Shown here: positions 10,897-23,400 of the stretch, piece by piece
Position numbering within the stretch: the stretch's first letter is position 1
Layout: each line of letters opens with the position of its first letter
Source: Microseira wollei NIES-4236
GTDB taxonomy: Bacteria > Cyanobacteriota > Cyanobacteriia > Cyanobacteriales > Aerosakkonemataceae
DNA length: 42,039 nucleotides
NCBI RefSeq assembly: GCF_020521235.1
Contig: NZ_BLAY01000087.1
Coordinates: 1-42,039 of the forward strand
Reading direction: 5' to 3'
Made by a program: the position numbers and the translations under genes
The notes under the pieces: model-generated
What the model was told of the DNA's origin: nothing
What the model saw: the letters and a program-made list of their open reading frames with translations, nothing else
The model's database searches: none

Positions 10897-11550
10897 GTTT
10901 CAAACAGGTTATAAGCTAAGAATGCTGAGTCAACCACATCCGAATTTCATTGTTAGTCATGCGCTTGAAATACGGAATGTTTTGCATCTCCAAACTCTTA
11001 GCTTTATTTAGGGCTATGGCAACAAGCTGGCGATGTGGTTGTGCATCAACTTTCACATCTTTTTCTTGCTGAGAAACCATATTTGCCAGTTCCAAACCAT
11101 GTGGATGGTCAAGCAGCTTGGTCAGCAATTCCAATGGATCTTGCATTTTACTTTGCCTCAGTAGAGTGAATAAAGTGAAAACAAAGCTTAACTTTCAAGG
11201 GCTGGTACTTCCTTAAAGCTAATCGCTAAGTAATATCAACGCTACAGTCAATTTGTTGCAACAGTCAAATACCAAAAAGAGCAATTTAACAGCATTTTTT
11301 TCTGAATATGCTGCTAAAATGCCCTGAGCAAAATTTTTCACCTTGTAACGCCCCATAACAGCTTAAAGCTGCTGCTTTCTAAGTACCAGTTAGAAAGTCA
11401 GGCATAGGGAGTTAAATTTAGTTCACTCTACTGACGGGGATTCAATCCCCTTACAGGGATTCAATTCGCTTACACTAATTCAATCCCTATCAGGGATTAT
11501 ATCTTATTCCCCCTGCGAATTTCCCAGGGGGTACTTGGGTTTTAATTACC

Positions 11551-12120
11551 CTACCCCCCATAACAAAACTCCCGCAACCGAGTAGCCGACTGCGGCAGTC
11601 CTTGATTTATTAGCGTTTCTAGATATTCATCAGGGGTTTTGGGTGGATTTCTTAGCCGCAGCCGTTGCTTTTGGGCGGCTTGGCAAACTGCGTCGGAATT
11701 AAGGTCAAGCAAGCGTAAGATAAATCTATCGGGGTGTATTGCTCGAATGTTGTATGGTGCAAGAATCTCGTTAGGAAAATCACTCAAGTTAAAAGTGACA
11801 ATGAAACCCGCTTGACAACGAATTGCCGCCGCAAAGACGTGACAATCGCCTGGATATGGAAGCTGCAATTGTGGAATTAATTCTTCATAGTCTGTCACCA
11901 AACAATTTTTAACGTGTGCATTCATCAAATTTTTGGTTCTTGTAACCTGTTCCAGCGTCAGATCAAGAAGGTTTTGCAGTACATTTCTCATCCATTCCGA
12001 GTGGATTTCCTCTGTCCAACGGGCTTCAAATACAGAGGTAAGTGCTAGCTCAACCAAAAAATACCGCAGGGGTGATCAATACAAGACATTGGCATCATAA
12101 AGAACAATCAGATCTGTCAT
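11551..12120 (-). pseudogene. PIN-domain ribonuclease (VapC-like toxin) interrupted by an in-frame TGA at 12076-12078
   Basis: ATG at 12120 gives MTDLIVLYDANVLY, then TGA, then SPLRYFLVELALT… in the same frame. DANVL carries the first catalytic Asp of PIN domains, so the TTG-initiated 168-aa ORF from the track would lack it. The stop of the upstream HTH gene lies 9 bp before this ATG. Confidence 0.55.
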
Positions 12121-13679: not shown

Positions 13680-14300
13680 ATGATACAATCGTATAGTAGC
13701 GGTATTTCCAAAACAATGATTGCCAATCCAAGCCAAAATTACATTTCTCCTCAAGATTATCTAGCAGGAGAGGAACTCAGCCCCATCAAACACGAATATA
13801 TTGATGGACAAATCTACGCAATGGCTGGGGCTAGCGATTCCCATGTTACCATTTCCCTCAACCTTGCTTCATTGTTAAGAAATCATGTCCGAGGTACTGG
13901 CTGCCGTGTCTATATGGCGGACATGAAAGCCTATATTGAAACAGCCAATATCTTTTACTATCCTGATGTGATGGTAACTTGCGATACCAGAGATCGAGAA
14001 TTCCCCATTCAAAAAAAATATCCTTGTTTAATTGTCGAAGTTTTATCTCAAAAAACAGAAGCATTCGATCGAGGTGACAAGTTTGCCGACTATCAACAAT
14101 TAGAAACTCTGCAAGAATATGTCTTAATTAGCCAAAAGCGCCAACGTTTAGAATGCTTCCGCCGCAATGCTGAGGGTTTTTGGGTATTGCAAACGTACAA
14201 TCAAGGCAGTGAAATTCATTTAGCAAGCATCGATTTTCGGACTAGCATGGATAGTTTATATGAAGATGTGACTTTCGGAAATAATGAAGAAACTCAGTAG
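13680..14300 (+). CDS. Uma2-family (DUF820) putative restriction-endonuclease-like protein
   Basis: ISPQDYLAGEE…HEYIDGQIYAMAGASDSH…YPDVMVTCD…YPCLIVEVLSQKTEAFDRGDKFADYQQ is the characteristic Uma2 pattern, abundant in cyanobacteria. The start may be the internal M at ~13716. Confidence 0.8.
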   Translation: MIQSYSSGISKTMIANPSQNYISPQDYLAGEELSPIKHEYIDGQIYAMAGASDSHVTISLNLASLLRNHVRGTGCRVYMADMKAYIETANIFYYPDVMVTCDTRDREFPIQKKYPCLIVEVLSQKTEAFDRGDKFADYQQLETLQEYVLISQKRQRLECFRRNAEGFWVLQTYNQGSEIHLASIDFRTSMDSLYEDVTFGNNEETQ

Positions 14301-15467: not shown

Positions 15468-17072
15468 ATGAGCGATCGCACTCGTGGAGTTTGGATTTGG
15501 AATTTGTCAAAAATTCGCAGCGATTATCTGGATAAGCTAGTTGAACGCCAAGTTAAGCGAGTTTATCTCAAAGTCTTTGATGGTAAATTCCAAGGGAAAC
15601 TGCAACCCACATTTTGGGATTGGCAATGTTCTGCTGAAATCGTGCAACAATTCCAATTGCTTGGGATTCAAGTTTATGGATGGGGGTATCACTACGGAAC
15701 TTCTGATGTTGATGAGCAGGTAGCTAAAGTTAAGCAAGCGCTTGCCTGGGGACTTGATGGGTATATCCTGGATTTGGAAAAGGAAGTTGAGGACAGAAGC
15801 ACTCACCCAAATGTAGAAAAGCTTCTTGCTACTCTGCGTCCTTTAGTTAAGGAAGGAACCCTGGGATATACCAGTTTCGGACATCCTGGATTGCATCCTA
15901 ATGTTCCTTGGAAAATGTTGGATAGGTATTGCGATATTGCTTTACCTCAAATCTATTTTGAGAAATTCACTTTCAAGCCAACCACTTCAGAAGAAGTTAA
16001 GGATTGTTTGGATGCACACAAGCGGCTAGGGTTGACTAAACCAATTCTGCCAATTTGGGGTGACGAAAGCGATACACCAAAACCGGCAATAGCAGCAGAA
16101 CTTCAAGACTACCTGAGTAATTTTCCGGGTTCGTCAATTTGGCGCATTCCTGATGTAGACGAACGTGGCGAAGCGTGGAATTTGGTATATTCTGACTTTG
16201 AATTACCAACCCTCACCCGCATTCTGCGTCGAGGCAGTAAAGGAGATGATGTTAAAGCACTGCAAAAAGTCTTGAATGCCAGAGGGTTTAATGCAGGAAC
16301 AGTAGATGGAGATTTTGGCCCTAAAACTGAAGCGGGTGTTAAAGCATTTCAAACCGAAGCCGATATTACTGTAGATGGGGAAGTTGGAGCGCAGACTTGG
16401 ACAGCGCTTGGTGGTAAGTTTAAAGCAGCTCAGCTAGTCAAGTTTGGCGATTTATCTGAAAGCGAAAAACAAGAGGTAGAAGCTGGCTTTTACTTCCCGC
16501 CTGCATTCGGCAACAGATACGCAAATACATCCAATTCTACTCCTAAACAATGGAGCGGAAATGCTGGACAGCGATCGCGTTATATTCAAGATGCCGATAT
16601 GCCTGTTGTTGCCGATTCAGAATCTCGTTCTGCGGATCAAATTCGTGCAGTAATTAACTACTTCAACGTGGAAGATTCTGGTAATAAACGTTTTTGGCCT
16701 AACGGAGGTGTCACCTGCTGCAATATATTTGCTAGGGATGTTATGCGTTGTCTGCGCGCGCCTTTAACTCACTGGGTTGGCGAAAAAGAGCAAGATGCAA
16801 ATGCCATGTTTGACTGGTTGAGTAACCCGGCAAATGGATGGCGTAAAGTTAGTGCAACCGCAGCAACGGAAGCAGCAAGTAAGGGAATTCCTACTTTGGG
16901 TTGTTGGAAAAATCCAGGAGGAATTGGACATATCGTTGTAGTCCGTCCCGAACCAGGCGAACCAAACAATCCTCGAATTGCTCAAGCTGGTGCAATCAAT
17001 TTTGCCAATGGTCTGGCGTCGAAGGGATTGAGTCCGGCAAAAGGAAGGTTTACTTACTTCGTTTATGACTAA
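15468..17072 (+). CDS. Modular cell-wall hydrolase: N-terminal glycoside-hydrolase-like domain, central peptidoglycan-binding domain (PG_binding_1), C-terminal Cys/His (CHAP- or NlpC/P60-like) domain
   Basis: Central LRRGSKGDDVKALQKVLNARGFNAGTVDGDFGPKTEAGVKAFQ…VDGEVGAQTWTAL is the canonical PG-binding repeat. The N-terminus has GVWIW…VYGWGYHYG…GYILDLE, which is TIM-barrel glycosidase-like. The C-terminus has GGVTCCNIF…GIGHIVVV, a candidate catalytic Cys/His. No signal peptide is apparent. Confidence 0.6.
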   Translation: MSDRTRGVWIWNLSKIRSDYLDKLVERQVKRVYLKVFDGKFQGKLQPTFWDWQCSAEIVQQFQLLGIQVYGWGYHYGTSDVDEQVAKVKQALAWGLDGYILDLEKEVEDRSTHPNVEKLLATLRPLVKEGTLGYTSFGHPGLHPNVPWKMLDRYCDIALPQIYFEKFTFKPTTSEEVKDCLDAHKRLGLTKPILPIWGDESDTPKPAIAAELQDYLSNFPGSSIWRIPDVDERGEAWNLVYSDFELPTLTRILRRGSKGDDVKALQKVLNARGFNAGTVDGDFGPKTEAGVKAFQTEADITVDGEVGAQTWTALGGKFKAAQLVKFGDLSESEKQEVEAGFYFPPAFGNRYANTSNSTPKQWSGNAGQRSRYIQDADMPVVADSESRSADQIRAVINYFNVEDSGNKRFWPNGGVTCCNIFARDVMRCLRAPLTHWVGEKEQDANAMFDWLSNPANGWRKVSATAATEAASKGIPTLGCWKNPGGIGHIVVVRPEPGEPNNPRIAQAGAINFANGLASKGLSPAKGRFTYFVYD

Positions 17073-17249: not shown

Positions 17250-17462
17250 ATAGAAACCGGATGGGAGCATGTCAGGTTTGTAAATTTACGCCGACACCCT
17301 AAAGGGTGCGGCTATACAAACGAAGCCCGCCTTCGCGGGCTAAAGCTTTTAAAGCCTGCGAAGGCAGGCTTTGTTTGTGTAGCGACACCCTTTAGGGTGT
17401 CGGCTACTCTCGTTGACATGCTCCCAACCGGATTTCTTTAGAGAAACCCGGTTTCTGAGTGC
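17250..17462. mobile_element. MITE with ~20-bp terminal inverted repeats (CCGGATGGGAGCATGTCAGG / CGTTGACATGCTCCCAACCGG) and an internal long palindrome (GCCGACACCCTAAAGGGTGCGGCTATACAAACGAAGCCCGCCTTCGCGGGC…)
   Basis: Both the TIRs and the nested palindromes can be read directly. The core is shared with 23221-23400 and, partially, with 4255-4505 and 19995-20045. Confidence 0.55.
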
Positions 17463-17545
17463 AGCGAGGCGGGTTTATATAGGATATGTGTCACAGTCAG
17501 AAATTGCCTGTCATATCATGTCCGGTAGATTACCCATACTCAGAA

Positions 17546-17610
17546 GTCGGGACACGGCATTATTAACGTTATCTGTTTGTCCGAGATATCGTCAGATGCC
17601 GTGTCCCTAC
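17546..17610. repeat. 65-bp hairpin repeat, family member 2 (GTCGGGACACGGCAT…ATGCCGTGTCCCTAC)
   Basis: See 10832-10896. Confidence 0.6.
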
Positions 17611-17678
17611 GCAACGACTCTGTGAGGTTTTTTTATTATGGGCAATTCAACGGACATGATATCAAACCTGCCCCTACT

Positions 17679-18764
17679 TTACCATCCTTGCTGTTCAACT
17701 AAATCGATGCACAGTTGATTTACTGCCTCTTTATCTACTCCTCTGGGTAAGGTAGATTTTGTATAAGCAACATCTAGTCCGTTATACAAATATGAGGCAA
17801 TTTTCATCACTGCTTCGTAGCTGTAATCGCCATTTTTAATGGCTAATAACTCGATCGCATCTCCTGCTTCTTGGCGGTCAACTATCACATTTCCTGTCTC
17901 TAATATTTCAATTCCTGTCCGCAAAAGCCGAATTGCTTGCATGGCAAATTTGCAATCGTAACCTACTTTTGCTTCCATTGCTGCTCTAGCTGGGTTGCGA
18001 TTTTTCTTCCATTGTTGGTAGTTGTCGTATTCTCTGCAAGCACTGTTATATTTTTGGCTTTTTTGCAATAGTTTGATGAAGTCTTTCGAGCTATTAGTCA
18101 GTTTTTGGGTATAGTCGAGCGTTTCTTCTGGTAGCGGGTATTGTTTTAACACTCCTTTGTAGTCAATTTCAGCCATCAATAGGTTATAAAGTTCTTCGGA
18201 TTCTGAGAGGAATTGGATGCGATCGCGTATCAACAAGTACAGATATTCCAAGAATGAATTAATATCAACCAATCCCAGGGGTTGATTTGGTTCTAATCCG
18301 AAATCTTCTGGTTTTGGCTTTTGTTGAGGCGGATCGAGTAACCACCGGCGGTGCGATTCTAATTTCTTGATTTGAGCATATCCATATCCTGCATAAGTAT
18401 GCTTGATTTTTTTTGACAAAAATATTTGCCGGTGTTGTTGTAATATTCTGCCAATTTCGGTTAAATGCACGTAGTCTTTAAACCACAGCAACTCTAGAAT
18501 GTTTGGGTTATTATCCGCAGATAATTCCAAAAACTTCTTCAACTCATAGATACAAGTGTCTTGAGTTAAATAAGAAAAGTTTCCAGGTTCGTCCGTCCAT
18601 CCTCTATCTTTTTGTTCAATTTTCTCAAATCCCAGATAGTAAGGTTTACTCGCAATAAAAACACCGCGATAGTCGTAATCTGAGGTTTCTGTTGCTAATC
18701 CGTAACCTCTAGAACCTGTCAAAGCAATCAGAATTGTTCTGTTTTCAATTTCTAGGCGGTTCAT
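17679..18764 (-). CDS. Pol-beta-superfamily nucleotidyltransferase (predicted-nucleotidyltransferase family of the kind found next to RNA ligases)
   Basis: N-terminal LIALTGSRGYGLATETSDYDYRGVF carries the GS…(D/E)xD nucleotidyltransferase signature. The 361-aa protein has a long helical C-terminal region. It lies downstream of, and co-oriented with, the RNA ligase gene. Confidence 0.65.
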   Translation of the reverse strand: MNRLEIENRTILIALTGSRGYGLATETSDYDYRGVFIASKPYYLGFEKIEQKDRGWTDEPGNFSYLTQDTCIYELKKFLELSADNNPNILELLWFKDYVHLTEIGRILQQHRQIFLSKKIKHTYAGYGYAQIKKLESHRRWLLDPPQQKPKPEDFGLEPNQPLGLVDINSFLEYLYLLIRDRIQFLSESEELYNLLMAEIDYKGVLKQYPLPEETLDYTQKLTNSSKDFIKLLQKSQKYNSACREYDNYQQWKKNRNPARAAMEAKVGYDCKFAMQAIRLLRTGIEILETGNVIVDRQEAGDAIELLAIKNGDYSYEAVMKIASYLYNGLDVAYTKSTLPRGVDKEAVNQLCIDLVEQQGW

Positions 18765-18839
18765 AATTGGCTAATTGGCTAATTGCTAATTGCTAATTGC
18801 TAATTGGAATAGGGGTGTTAAACCGGCGCCGACCGATTC

Positions 18840-19835
18840 TTATGCGGTTAAACCATAATATTTGGATAACCACATGCCATAATGATGGAAAATGAGATTT
18901 TGATGGTATGATACGACTTCAGTTCCGTATTCAAGAGACATGTTTTCTATTAAAGTATCTAGGGAAACTTCTTCGCCTCGATCTACCATTTTCCACAGAG
19001 AGTGAAAGATAGTAATCGGACGGATGCTGACTCTGGCGGTGCGGTGATATTCTTCCATTGAGGGGGGTTTGAATTTCCATTGAAATCCCAAGGACTGGGT
19101 TTCTATATTTAAAACAACTCCTTCATGGCGATATAAACCTAGCAGCGGATTGTTTTCTTTTTCCTGTTCGGCTACTAATTGTTGCCCGAAATGTAAGAGA
19201 GTTTGTTCGCTTAATTTTGGCATTGAAATTCTCGCTAATTCATCAACGATAGGAATGGAATTTGCCGCTGCTATCTGTTTGACGAGTCGCCAAGGTTGGG
19301 TGGTATTTCGATTTTTGATGATGGTGTGCAAAGATAACCTCAGCGGGGTGTCATATTGGACGGTATGTTGATTGTTTGCACCCCAGAGTTCAAACACTAG
19401 GGTGGCGTTTTGTTGGCGACAAACTTTAGCGATTCTTTCTATTAATTGGTCATCTAGTGCGGTATTAACTAATGTGCGAAGCGATCGCCATTTCGTATCC
19501 GCAATTACCACCATACCTCTCTTGCGCGGGAATACCAGTATTTCACCGTCTGGCAACTGCAAGGGCGAAAACAGAATCGCCGTACCGTCCATTTTGCGTG
19601 TGAAAGAGGCAGCGATCGCACGATTCGGTAAAATAAATGGATGTTGTATTTTATGGGTATAAGGTATTTCTGGCATCCCTGGCAATATTTGCTGCGTGGG
19701 GATGTCATTAATTGAATTGATTTCTACTTCGCCAGGAAATTTGCCTCGCTTGATAGTTATTTGACCTTTGAGGGTGTAGACTTTCCCTTTGTGTTCTAGG
19801 GAAGCTTTGAACTTACGCCAGCTATTTTTGCTCAT
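18840..19835 (-). CDS. ATP-dependent RNA ligase-like nucleotidyltransferase (Rnl-type)
   Basis: Covalent nucleotidyltransferase motifs appear in the correct order: motif I FTRKMDGTA (KxDG), motif III/IIIa LVFELWG, motif IV HEGVVL, motif V WKFKP. Spacing fits RNA/DNA ligase adenylyltransferase domains, and the size fits stand-alone RNA ligases. Confidence 0.6.
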   Translation of the reverse strand: MSKNSWRKFKASLEHKGKVYTLKGQITIKRGKFPGEVEINSINDIPTQQILPGMPEIPYTHKIQHPFILPNRAIAASFTRKMDGTAILFSPLQLPDGEILVFPRKRGMVVIADTKWRSLRTLVNTALDDQLIERIAKVCRQQNATLVFELWGANNQHTVQYDTPLRLSLHTIIKNRNTTQPWRLVKQIAAANSIPIVDELARISMPKLSEQTLLHFGQQLVAEQEKENNPLLGLYRHEGVVLNIETQSLGFQWKFKPPSMEEYHRTARVSIRPITIFHSLWKMVDRGEEVSLDTLIENMSLEYGTEVVSYHQNLIFHHYGMWLSKYYGLTA

Positions 19836-20040
19836 AGAAACCTCCCCAGGTAGAAGAAAGTCTTTACCCGTTCGTTAAACAAGATAGCATCAGAAGCTTA
19901 GTTTTATATTACATACATACTACATAAATGTCAAGGGCGAGGGTGGAGAGAGCGATCGCTCCTATATTGGAAGCTAATTTTATCCCAAATTCGGTTAATA
20001 GCCCGCGCAGGCGGGCTTTGTTTGTATAGCCACACCCTTA

Positions 20041-20118
20041 AGGGTGTGGGTGTAGGTGTGGGTGTAGGTGTGGGTGTGGGTGTAGGTGTGGGTGTGTGTG
20101 TGGGTGTGGGTGTGGGTG
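20041..20118. repeat. G-rich hexanucleotide microsatellite (GGGTGT/GTAGGT)n of ~13 units
   Basis: GGGTGTGGGTGTAGGTGTGGGTGTAGG… lies immediately 3' of the DUF1287 gene stop (20132, minus strand) and abuts a MITE-core fragment (19995-20045). Confidence 0.7.
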
Positions 20119-20131
20119 GATCGCGTTGATT

Positions 20132-20797
20132 TCAAAAGAAGCGATAATGTCCAAGAATGGGCCAATTAAACAAAATATCTTCGAGTTCAGTCCCAGCACC
20201 GATGTTATGGATAATCATCAGTCTACCGGAGGGCGATCGCATATCGCTGACGATACCGATGTGTTGCTGTCCGCCGCCTAAATCCCAGGTGACGATATCG
20301 CCTGGTTGATAGTTCGATGAATTGCGACTGATGGGTAATGCTTTACCTTGGCGTTTAAAATAGGTCATTAAATTGGGAACGCGACGGTGATCGATGTTTG
20401 GATCTGGTGCCTTTAACCCCCAATTATTGGGATAGGCGGCAAAGTTTTTTCGCATATCTTGATTGACGGTTTTTTGCAAATCTATATCAACTTCTCGAAA
20501 TGCTCGAATCACGACATCGGTACAAACTCCCGTTGTCATAGGTACATCGCCGCCAGGAAAGGGAATTCGGACGTATGATGGATCGTAGTCACGGGTGATT
20601 TTGGTTTGAGCGATCGCATTGTCTATTACCCGGCGAATTGTGGGCGACGAAACTAACACTTTTGTTAAATTTGAGCTTGTGGCTGGAGTTGGATTGGCAG
20701 GATTGGTAAGCTGATACGCGGCAGGATTTTGACAGGCAGCGCAGAGGGAAGTAACGATCAAAATGACAGGCGTGAAGCGAGCGGTTTTTAAGTCCAC
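20132..20797 (-). CDS. DUF1287-family lipoprotein
   Basis: Signal/lipobox region …VTSLCAAC. Conserved DUF1287 blocks are YDPSYVRIPFPGGDVP, TGVCTDVVIRAFREVDIDLQ, PDPNIDHRRVPNL, YQPGDIVTWDL…HIGIV and IIHNIGAG. Confidence 0.75.
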   Translation of the reverse strand: MDLKTARFTPVILIVTSLCAACQNPAAYQLTNPANPTPATSSNLTKVLVSSPTIRRVIDNAIAQTKITRDYDPSYVRIPFPGGDVPMTTGVCTDVVIRAFREVDIDLQKTVNQDMRKNFAAYPNNWGLKAPDPNIDHRRVPNLMTYFKRQGKALPISRNSSNYQPGDIVTWDLGGGQQHIGIVSDMRSPSGRLMIIHNIGAGTELEDILFNWPILGHYRFF

Positions 20798-21091: not shown

Positions 21092-21650
21092 GTTGCAACT
21101 AACTAAAATCCCTATTAGGGATTGAAACTCGTGAGCGATCGCTTTAAGCGTCTGTGTTTTCCCAGTTGCAACTGACTAAAATCCCTATTAGTGATTGAAA
21201 CGTGCGTTTGGCGTGTCCCCGTGCGCAGGTGTTCTAGGATTGCAACTGACTAAAATCCCTACTAGGGATTGAAACAAGCTGGTAACTGCGAGACTGTACT
21301 GGGAGAATTATTGTTGCAACTGACTAAAATACCTATTAGGGATTGAAACATTCTGAAATCCTCCTTTGTAGAAATAGTAAGTTTCCGAGTTGCAACTGAC
21401 TAAAATCCCTATTAGGGATTGAAACACTGTAAGCGCCCTTACAGATCTAAAGGTGCGCGAGGGTTGCAACTGACTAAAATCCCTACTAGGGATTGAAACA
21501 ACCAGACGAGGGAGTTCAGCGGTAAAGTAATCAGTTTCGTTGCAACTAACTAAAATCCCTACTAGGGATTGAAACAAATCCTGTAGCTGGCAGTCAACCT
21601 GGTCAAAAAATTGGTTGCAACTTATTCAAATCCCTACTAGGGATTGAAAC
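21092..21650 (+). CRISPR. CRISPR array: 8 repeats of 37 bp (consensus GTTGCAACTGACTAAAATCCCTATTAGGGATTGAAAC), 7 unique spacers of 36-39 bp; no cas genes in window
   Basis: Repeat starts are at 21092, 21165, 21239, 21313, 21389, 21463, 21539 and 21614. The last repeat is degenerate (GTTGCAACTTATTCAAATCCC…), marking the leader-distal end. The repeat ends in ATTGAAAC, the typical 8-nt crRNA 5' handle. An AT-rich putative leader lies at ~20990-21091. Confidence 0.9.
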
Positions 21651-23255: not shown

Positions 23256-23400
23256 AATCCGGCACCCTGAAGGGTGCCGCTATACAAACGAAGCCCGCCT
23301 TCGCGGGCTGAAATCCTTACAGCCCGCGAAGGCGGGCTTCGTTTGTGTAGCCCCAGGCCTGCAGCCTGGGGGCGTTTGATCGGAAACCGGGTTTCTTTCT
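23221..23400. mobile_element. MITE copy (GAAACCCGGTT…CCGGCACCCTGAAGGGTGCCGCTATACAAACGAAGCCCGCCTTCGCGGGC…GCCCGCGAAGGCGGGCTTCGTTTGTGTAGCC…GGAAACCGGGTTTC)
   Basis: Same core and terminal GAAACCGGGTTTC motifs as the 17250-17462 element. The core is a long internal palindrome. Confidence 0.55.

Follow-up and report, generated by a model that had tools for sequence, protein, structure and literature searches.

In the 42,039-bp contig of the cyanobacterium Microseira wollei NIES-4236, the whole of which was analysed (hereafter designated the window), we found a gene for a predicted ATP-dependent RNA ligase directly followed by a gene for an RlaP-family DNA polymerase beta-type (Pol-beta) nucleotidyltransferase, and we propose with moderate confidence that the two constitute a chromosomal two-gene 'add-and-seal' RNA repair module of the known RlaP–RNA ligase kind. 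In the first step of such a module, RlaP would lengthen a damaged RNA, probably a tRNA, at its 3'-OH by 1–2 nucleotides, as suggested by analogy with the RlaPs of Pseudomonas. In the second step, the ligase would be adenylylated on K81 by ATP, transfer the AMP to a 5'-phosphate end, and seal this end to the 3'-OH, as its motifs and predicted fold suggest. The two reactions fit together chemically, the 3'-OH end being used by both enzymes. An Rnl1-type ligase needs a 5'-phosphate, and 5'-OH ends are not sealed by it without a kinase. Because the pair itself contains neither a kinase nor a phosphatase, the substrate would either already carry 3'-OH and 5'-phosphate ends or have its ends healed by enzymes encoded elsewhere. 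This function appears to be the most likely one, because the association of RlaP with RNA ligases has been published and the Pseudomonas RlaPs add nucleotides before ligation; for the same reason, the class of system is one that has already been described.

The pair consists of two intact, co-oriented open reading frames (ORFs) on the minus strand. The upstream one encodes the ligase (18840-19835; 331 aa; GET40308.1), labelled 'T4 RnlA family RNA ligase' by NCBI, and the downstream one encodes RlaP (17679-18764; 361 aa; GET40307.1), which carries the generic NCBI label 'nucleotidyltransferase domain-containing protein'. They are separated by a spacer of 75 bp (18765-18839, minus strand) with a heptamer tandem repeat (TAATTGC, 5.9 copies, 18764-18806), in exact agreement with an initial annotation made from the DNA sequence alone, which had described two co-oriented genes with a repeat-containing spacer at these positions. 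The spacer measures 67 nt and contains fewer TAATTGC copies in two of the relatives that carry the pair (L001, where it occupies 10997-11063, and L009, which is Microseira sp. BLCC-F43); the copy number of the heptamer in this spacer thus varies among strains. The ligase and RlaP genes are likely to be co-transcribed, because no terminator-like site was predicted between them on the coding strand. A sigma-70-like promoter candidate (TTGACA-17-TAATAT; 19906-19934, minus strand) is located some 70 nt ahead of the ligase start. It is weak evidence, because a consensus promoter scan gave no more sites in the region than in shuffled sequence. A GGAGG ribosome-binding site (19841-19845, minus strand) is located 5 nt before the ligase ATG, and the final ~100 nt ahead of this ATG, including GGAGG, are kept in L001 and L009, whereas the sequence farther upstream is not. 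Directly 3' of the RlaP stop codon, the nested inverted repeats I3 and I8 form a hairpin element (17513-17662) that could serve as a terminator. This element is missing at that position in the relatives, and the GGACACGGCAT...ATGCCGTGTCCC hairpin is located upstream of the ligase in L001 and L009 instead. In the comparison with L001, a 93%-identical relative, the ratio of synonymous-only to non-synonymous codons was 37:24 for the ligase and 47:13 for RlaP, which indicates that purifying selection acts on both genes.

The upstream protein matched the Pfam family PF09511 (RNA_lig_T4_1) with an E-value of 1.9e-10 and 41.4 bits (cutoff, 28.3), and its score for PF09414 (20.9 bits) was under the cutoff of 27. 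Nucleotidyltransferase motifs I (RKMDGT; T79-x-K81-x-D83-G84-T85), III (FELWG, 148-152; F148-E149-L150-x-G152), IV (HEGVV, 237-241; E238-G239), and V (WKFK, 253-256; W253-K254-x-K256) occur in order and do not vary among 22 homologs, the most distant of which are 40% identical; careful alignment of these homologs showed the lysine motif and all the others to be retained. K81 is predicted from motif I to be the AMP-accepting lysine. An AlphaFold2 model computed from the 22-homolog alignment was confident, with a predicted local distance difference test score (pLDDT) of 89.8 and a predicted template modelling score (pTM) of 0.88. In the model, a beta domain of four strands at the N terminus (residues 1-~55) precedes the nucleotidyltransferase core, and the C-terminal domain (258-331) is short and helical. 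A Foldseek search of the PDB with this model retrieved fungal Trl1 ligase domains, archaeal Rnl3, and T4 Rnl1 (E-values of 1e-9 to 1e-7), so that the fold is that of an RNA ligase and not of a DNA ligase or capping enzyme. On the basis of the Pfam match, the motifs, the AlphaFold2 model, and the Foldseek matches, the protein is a compact, predicted ATP-dependent RNA ligase nearest to the Rnl1/Rnl3/Trl1 group, which upholds the ligase assignment with ordered motifs in the initial annotation.

The ligase family is small, uncharacterised, and sporadically distributed. It comprised 33 clusters at 90% identity in a search of 5.8 billion proteins; when 1.84 billion representatives were searched exhaustively with a profile, 395 matched at E<=1e-3 and only 20 at E<=1e-30. 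Members of the family are scattered over Cyanobacteria, Planctomycetota, Anaerolineales, Myxococcota, and phage-like contigs. Searches of the PDB with the ligase sequence and profile returned nothing useful, and the family is without a solved structure. Two homologs are encoded on contigs whose other genes are phage-like. Derivation of the ligase directly from a phage or plasmid could not be shown, because no relatives were matched in IMG/VR, among the INPHARED phages (50,697 phage records), or among the PLSDB plasmids, and no PHROG family was matched. As a separate observation, a 50%-identical ligase homolog on a Logan contig from SRR31843399 (L006, 781-11407; L032) lies amid phage-like genes, including those for a Thg1-like tRNA-His guanylyltransferase (phrog_4717, E 4e-86), HNH, Pyr_excise, and LAGLIDADG proteins, a SpoU methylase, and Amidase_2. 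Such company suggests that members of the family may be carried in viruses together with genes for tRNA repair, despite the negative searches of IMG/VR and INPHARED. An unannotated 330-aa gene adjoining the L006 homolog was considered as RlaP-like and was rejected (hhalign probability, 0.5%).

The downstream protein matched PF10127, which is named RlaP ('RNA repair pathway DNA polymerase beta family'), with an E-value of 2.6e-21 and 76.9 bits (cutoff, 23), the match covering only residues 9-136 (model positions 19-141 of 249). Profile searches thus placed both proteins above the cutoffs of their Pfam families; NCBIfam gave no meaningful match for either. Moreover, the whole RlaP protein matched the phage family phrog_388 ('nucleotidyltransferase') with an E-value of 1.5e-54. 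The GS...DxD Pol-beta signature noted in the initial annotation for the 361-aa protein is present as LTGSRGYG...SDYDY, and G17, S18, D29, D31, and D69 are invariant in 32 orthologs. Three aspartates are strictly conserved in RlaP (PMC12776372), and D69 is presumably the third of them. The protein is predicted to consist of an N-terminal nucleotidyltransferase domain, with G17-S18, D29, D31, and D69, and a long C-terminal helical region. The crystal structure of Pseudomonas PfRlaP comprises an N-terminal nucleotidyltransferase domain and a C-terminal helical domain (PMC12776372).

A search with RlaP retrieved 906 homologs, the best 120 of which span 60-97% identity over the full length. Orthologs are common among filamentous cyanobacteria such as Nostoc, Nodularia, Calothrix, Planktothrix, Trichocoleus, Oscillatoria, and Lusitaniella, and full-length homologs of 32-36% identity are present in 379 phage records. 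Among these phages, the RlaP homolog of Cronobacter phage PBES 02 (L071, 1687-6053) lies five genes downstream of a gene for a CCA-adding tRNA nucleotidyltransferase, and that of Vibrio phage 496E54-1 (L072, 3179-6026) lies one gene downstream of such a gene; this proximity of phage RlaPs to genes for CCA-adding enzymes is consistent with a function at the ends of tRNAs. Near the PBES02 RlaP, a hypothetical protein of 331 aa was considered as a ligase, its length being equal to that of the Microseira enzyme, yet it is unrelated.

Passages of PMC12776372 and PMC7824862 credit the RlaP–RNA ligase association to Burroughs and Aravind (2016), which, together with the name of PF10127, bears out a link between this nucleotidyltransferase family and RNA ligases that the initial annotation had put forward. 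PfRlaP and PaRlaP of Pseudomonas are encoded in RtcB–RlaP–RtcA operons (PMC12776372, a 2025 preprint). In vitro, the two Pseudomonas RlaPs add 1–2 nucleoside monophosphates to an RNA 3'-OH, with a preference for a broken-tRNA mimic; they require the RNA 3'-OH and do not act on DNA (PMC12776372). When applied before ligation, Pseudomonas RlaP partly restores the aminoacylation of a tRNA that is short of one nucleotide at the break (PMC12776372). The 3'-OH product of RlaP is appropriate for 5'-phosphate ligases, whereas RtcB requires a 3'-phosphate, a mismatch left unresolved in that study (PMC12776372). Furthermore, phage T4 encodes an RlaP homolog, NrdC.11 (PMC12776372).

The conservation of the pairing was analysed at 64 ligase loci, some of them duplicates, drawn from the encoding contigs, GTDB at one genome per species, and Joint Genome Institute (JGI) metagenomes. 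RlaP was detected at these loci by tblastn with the window RlaP and by a profile hidden Markov model (HMM) of 120 cyanobacterial RlaPs. Beyond the window, RlaP adjoins the ligase in four loci only (L001-L003 and L009, all roughly 93-97% identical to the window), where the ligase and RlaP are 93% and 96% identical to those of the window and the flanking genes are the same. Thus, Microseira sp. BLCC-F43 and the metagenomic relatives have kept the two genes together, each under purifying selection, and the adjacency is a genus-level juxtaposition in Microseira, not a conserved operon. The RlaP clade is widespread in cyanobacteria and usually solitary, and the ligase is rare, sporadic, and likewise usually solitary. 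These results go in part against the initial annotation, for which the pairing should recur among homologs: it does so among the Microseira loci, and the other ligase loci and RlaP contexts are unpaired.

Several findings weigh against the proposed cooperation of the two enzymes. No RlaP was found within the available sequence of the ~47 other ligase-family loci (27-75% identity to the window ligase), which include those of Coleofasciculus, Allocoleopsis, Spirulina, cyanobacterial metagenome-assembled genomes (MAGs), Planctomycetota, Anaerolineales, Myxococcota, and metagenomes. As a positive control, the RlaP HMM scored phage RlaPs of 32% identity at E-values of 1e-52 to 1e-58. When 10 immediate neighbours and, more widely, 132 flanking genes of ligase homologs were scanned with Pfam, no recurrent partner emerged: among the 132 genes, generic methyltransferases accounted for 5 and PIN proteins for 3, and neither RlaP nor Pnkp nor RtcB was among the families matched by at least three. 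The absence of RlaP from the ligase flanks rests mainly on the HMM and its positive control, because the Pfam survey of the 132 genes lists the 25 most frequent families. Conversely, neither this ligase family nor any Pfam RNA ligase or RtcB was found within 6 kb of RlaP in six other contexts (eight loci), including the Trichocoleus-type (two loci), Lusitaniella, Nodularia (two loci), MAG P01_E01_bin.42, and Kastovskya contexts; in MAG P01_E01_bin.42, the ligase and RlaP lie on separate contigs. Within the window, a Pfam scan of ORFs of at least 100 aa revealed no end-healing kinase, phosphatase, phosphoesterase, or cyclase. Lastly, the family assignment of RlaP rests on sequence profiles, because its AlphaFold2 model is mediocre (helices at 120-358, mean pLDDT of 72, and a catalytic core below 50) and Foldseek gave no significant match for it in the PDB; PDB searches with the RlaP sequence and profile also gave nothing useful.

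The main rival to the add-and-seal reading, possible but doubtful in our view, is that the adjacency is fortuitous. RlaP would then be a resident pan-cyanobacterial enzyme acting on its own or together with a ligase encoded elsewhere, for example RtcB; in the Microseira lineage, the rare ligase would have landed beside it and would function independently. The solitary occurrence of both families at all other loci examined agrees with this explanation, as does the sporadic distribution of the ligase, which suggests horizontal transfer without a fixed partner. It has to contend, however, with the low odds (about 1e-4) of two single-copy genes lying side by side in the same orientation when the genome holds several thousand genes, with the published association and compatible end chemistry of the two families, and with the persistence of the intact pair under purifying selection across diverged Microseira strains.

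As regards the RlaP contexts themselves, the Trichocoleus-type loci (L024, 4849-7086; L069, 4850-7086) have an RlaP ortholog of 80% identity directly after a gene of 382-384 aa whose sole match is Acyl-CoA_dh_N, and in L069 the frames of the two overlap by 4 nt. The Acyl-CoA_dh_N-match gene looks like a different, tightly coupled partner of RlaP in these genomes.

As an RlaP–RNA ligase module, the Microseira pair resembles the published associations and the Pseudomonas operons in having a PF10127 protein with the GS...DxD...D residues beside an RNA ligase on the same strand, and in its predicted role of restoring lost 3' nucleotides before sealing. It differs from the Pseudomonas RtcB–RlaP–RtcA systems in that the partner is a predicted ATP-dependent 5'-phosphate ligase (Rnl1/Rnl3-like) instead of RtcB, RtcA and RtcR are missing, and only the N-terminal 130 residues of the 361-aa RlaP match the Pfam model. 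Unlike in the known associations, the cyanobacterial RlaP orthologs are solitary and the pairing is limited to one genus. In comparison with the T4 tRNA repair system (Pnkp and Rnl1), the pair is without a linked polynucleotide kinase/phosphatase, its setting is chromosomal and cyanobacterial and not that of a phage, and the ligase (331 aa) is shorter than T4 Rnl1 (374 aa), to which it is ~13% identical, with a predicted helical C-terminal domain of ~75 aa apparently in place of the larger tRNA-specificity domain of T4 Rnl1. Its identity to the archaeal Rnl3 enzymes (MthRnl, 5d1o; Pab1020, 2vug) is 13-16%, and its Pfam signal is that of the Rnl1 family. Finally, the pair shares with the Pnkp/Hen1 and RtcAB operons the character of a bacterial, operon-encoded, predicted RNA repair system with a sealing enzyme, and it lacks their kinase and phosphoesterase domains, Hen1 methyltransferase, RtcA cyclase, and dedicated regulator.

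Accordingly, the locus is an ordinary new example of a described pairing, the only unusual feature of which is that the genes stand side by side in Microseira alone, and the points from the RlaP and ligase surveys leave the current understanding of RNA repair unchanged. A bolder proposal, which seems rather unlikely at present, is that Microseira has assembled a minimal, kinase-less 'extend-and-seal' operon from a conserved nucleotidyltransferase and a rare, uncharacterised ligase. If the enzymes do cooperate, the pair would rank as the simplest natural arrangement for passing the 3'-OH product of RlaP straight to a 5'-phosphate ligase, and the compact ligase family could be a distinct class of RNA ligase for RlaP-extended breaks or those with 3'-OH and 5'-phosphate ends. 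Being a compact natural combination of RlaP and a predicted ATP-dependent ligase of an uncharacterised family with matching end chemistry, the pair would offer a cleaner model for testing the coupling of nucleotide restoration by RlaP to sealing.

The initial annotation had further suggested that the two genes form a conflict or counter-toxin module in an island of PIN-domain, Uma2, and clustered regularly interspaced short palindromic repeat (CRISPR) elements. On the ligase side, the pair is flanked by a DUF1287 gene (20132-20797), beyond which, between DUF1287 and a CDP-OH_P_transf gene, a CRISPR-DR5 array with 8 repeats and spacers of 36-40 nt (21092-21650, plus strand) starts 1.26 kb from the ligase start. 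On the RlaP side lie, in order, a PG_binding_1 protein gene (15468-17072; 534 aa), Uma2 (13680-14300), and an HTH_17 gene followed by a PIN_3-like gene (12630-11554). The elements of the supposed island are therefore present, the array at nearly the distance given; the PIN genes, by contrast, are 5.6 kb from the pair behind the unrelated PG_binding and Uma2 genes.

The reading based on this neighbourhood holds that the pair repairs RNA cut by the nearby PIN toxins or by phage-related nucleases, as part of a defence island with Uma2 and CRISPR, and we consider it improbable. RlaP has been proposed as an antidote to nucleotide-removing ribotoxins (PMC12776372), and the HTH/PIN_3 pair, Uma2, and the CRISPR mini-array all lie at 1.3-6 kb. 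In addition, the two Nodularia spumigena loci (L026, 5522-7092; L027, 5597-7092) have a small PIN fragment (62-87 aa, weak Pfam match) directly upstream of RlaP and co-oriented with it. Nevertheless, PADLOC gave no match for either protein, the array is without cas genes in the window, PIN proteins are as scarce around the ligase homologs as stated above, and the surrounding 30 kb, including CobN, the P-type ATPase, and CbiC, is housekeeping and syntenic with the relatives. Moreover, the substrate requirement of the ligase is at odds with the ends that such toxins would supply: VapC-type PIN toxins are reported to leave 5'-OH ends (PMC6459853), which a ligase of this type does not join without a kinase. 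Because the window also encodes no end-healing kinase or phosphatase, the two enzymes cannot by themselves counteract the nearby PIN toxins. The idea that metal-dependent PIN toxins leave directly sealable ends was dropped in view of the 5'-OH ends left by VapC (PMC6459853). Thus, RNA repair survives from the initial annotation, by virtue of the two families and their published association, and no conflict system is evident.

Mobility of the pair had been suggested from bracketing miniature inverted-repeat transposable elements (MITEs) and hairpins. Repeats do occur on both sides, outside the gene pair: a dispersed, MITE-like repeat of ~56 nt forms a palindromic pair at 17287-17404 and occurs as a single copy at 19995-20054, with a further copy at 23284-23346. 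However, these repeats are missing from the same intergenic regions of L001 and L009, where other hairpin elements are found instead. They are therefore independent intergenic insertions, not cassette ends, and do not suggest mobility, because the flanking repeats differ between syntenic strains. The view that the pair is a recently acquired cassette delimited by MITEs is largely refuted and deserves almost no credence: the inverted copies at 17287-17342 and 19999-20054 (89% complementary) and the G+C contents of the two genes (0.42 and 0.39, slightly under the window mean of 0.45) speak for it, but L001 and L009 have the pair between the same neighbours with these repeats missing and different hairpins, the repeat recurs at 23284-23346, HIP1 (GCGATCGC) sites are present in both genes as elsewhere on the contig, like in resident cyanobacterial DNA, and neither a transposase nor an integrase is encoded in the vicinity. 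A GGGTGT hexamer tandem repeat of 12.8 copies (20042-20118), just downstream of the DUF1287 stop codon, abuts one copy of the dispersed repeat and is not found at the corresponding site in the relatives.

The rest of the window encodes housekeeping and signalling proteins, including CobN, a P-type ATPase, MerR-CbiC, histidine kinases, and an FGGY kinase, and the gene order over ~30 kb is common to the window and the relatives. At the CRISPR site, the ~93%-identical relatives have 5 repeats, two of them nearly abutting, as compared with 8 in the window; the array therefore varies between strains or decays. In the PIN_3 (VapC50-like) region (12120-11554, minus strand), all 189 residues align to the L001 homolog with 68% identity. 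The longest ORF of the window in this region starts at 12057 (168 aa) and has no Pfam match at E<=0.001, and the gene may be N-terminally disrupted, in line with the disrupted PIN gene of the initial annotation. At the other end of the window, an 874-aa ORF (811-3435, minus strand) strongly matches Major Vault Protein domains (Vault repeats, E 9e-65; MVP_shoulder, E 3e-54; and Vault_2/3/4), and bacterial homologs of this eukaryote-type protein are unusual.

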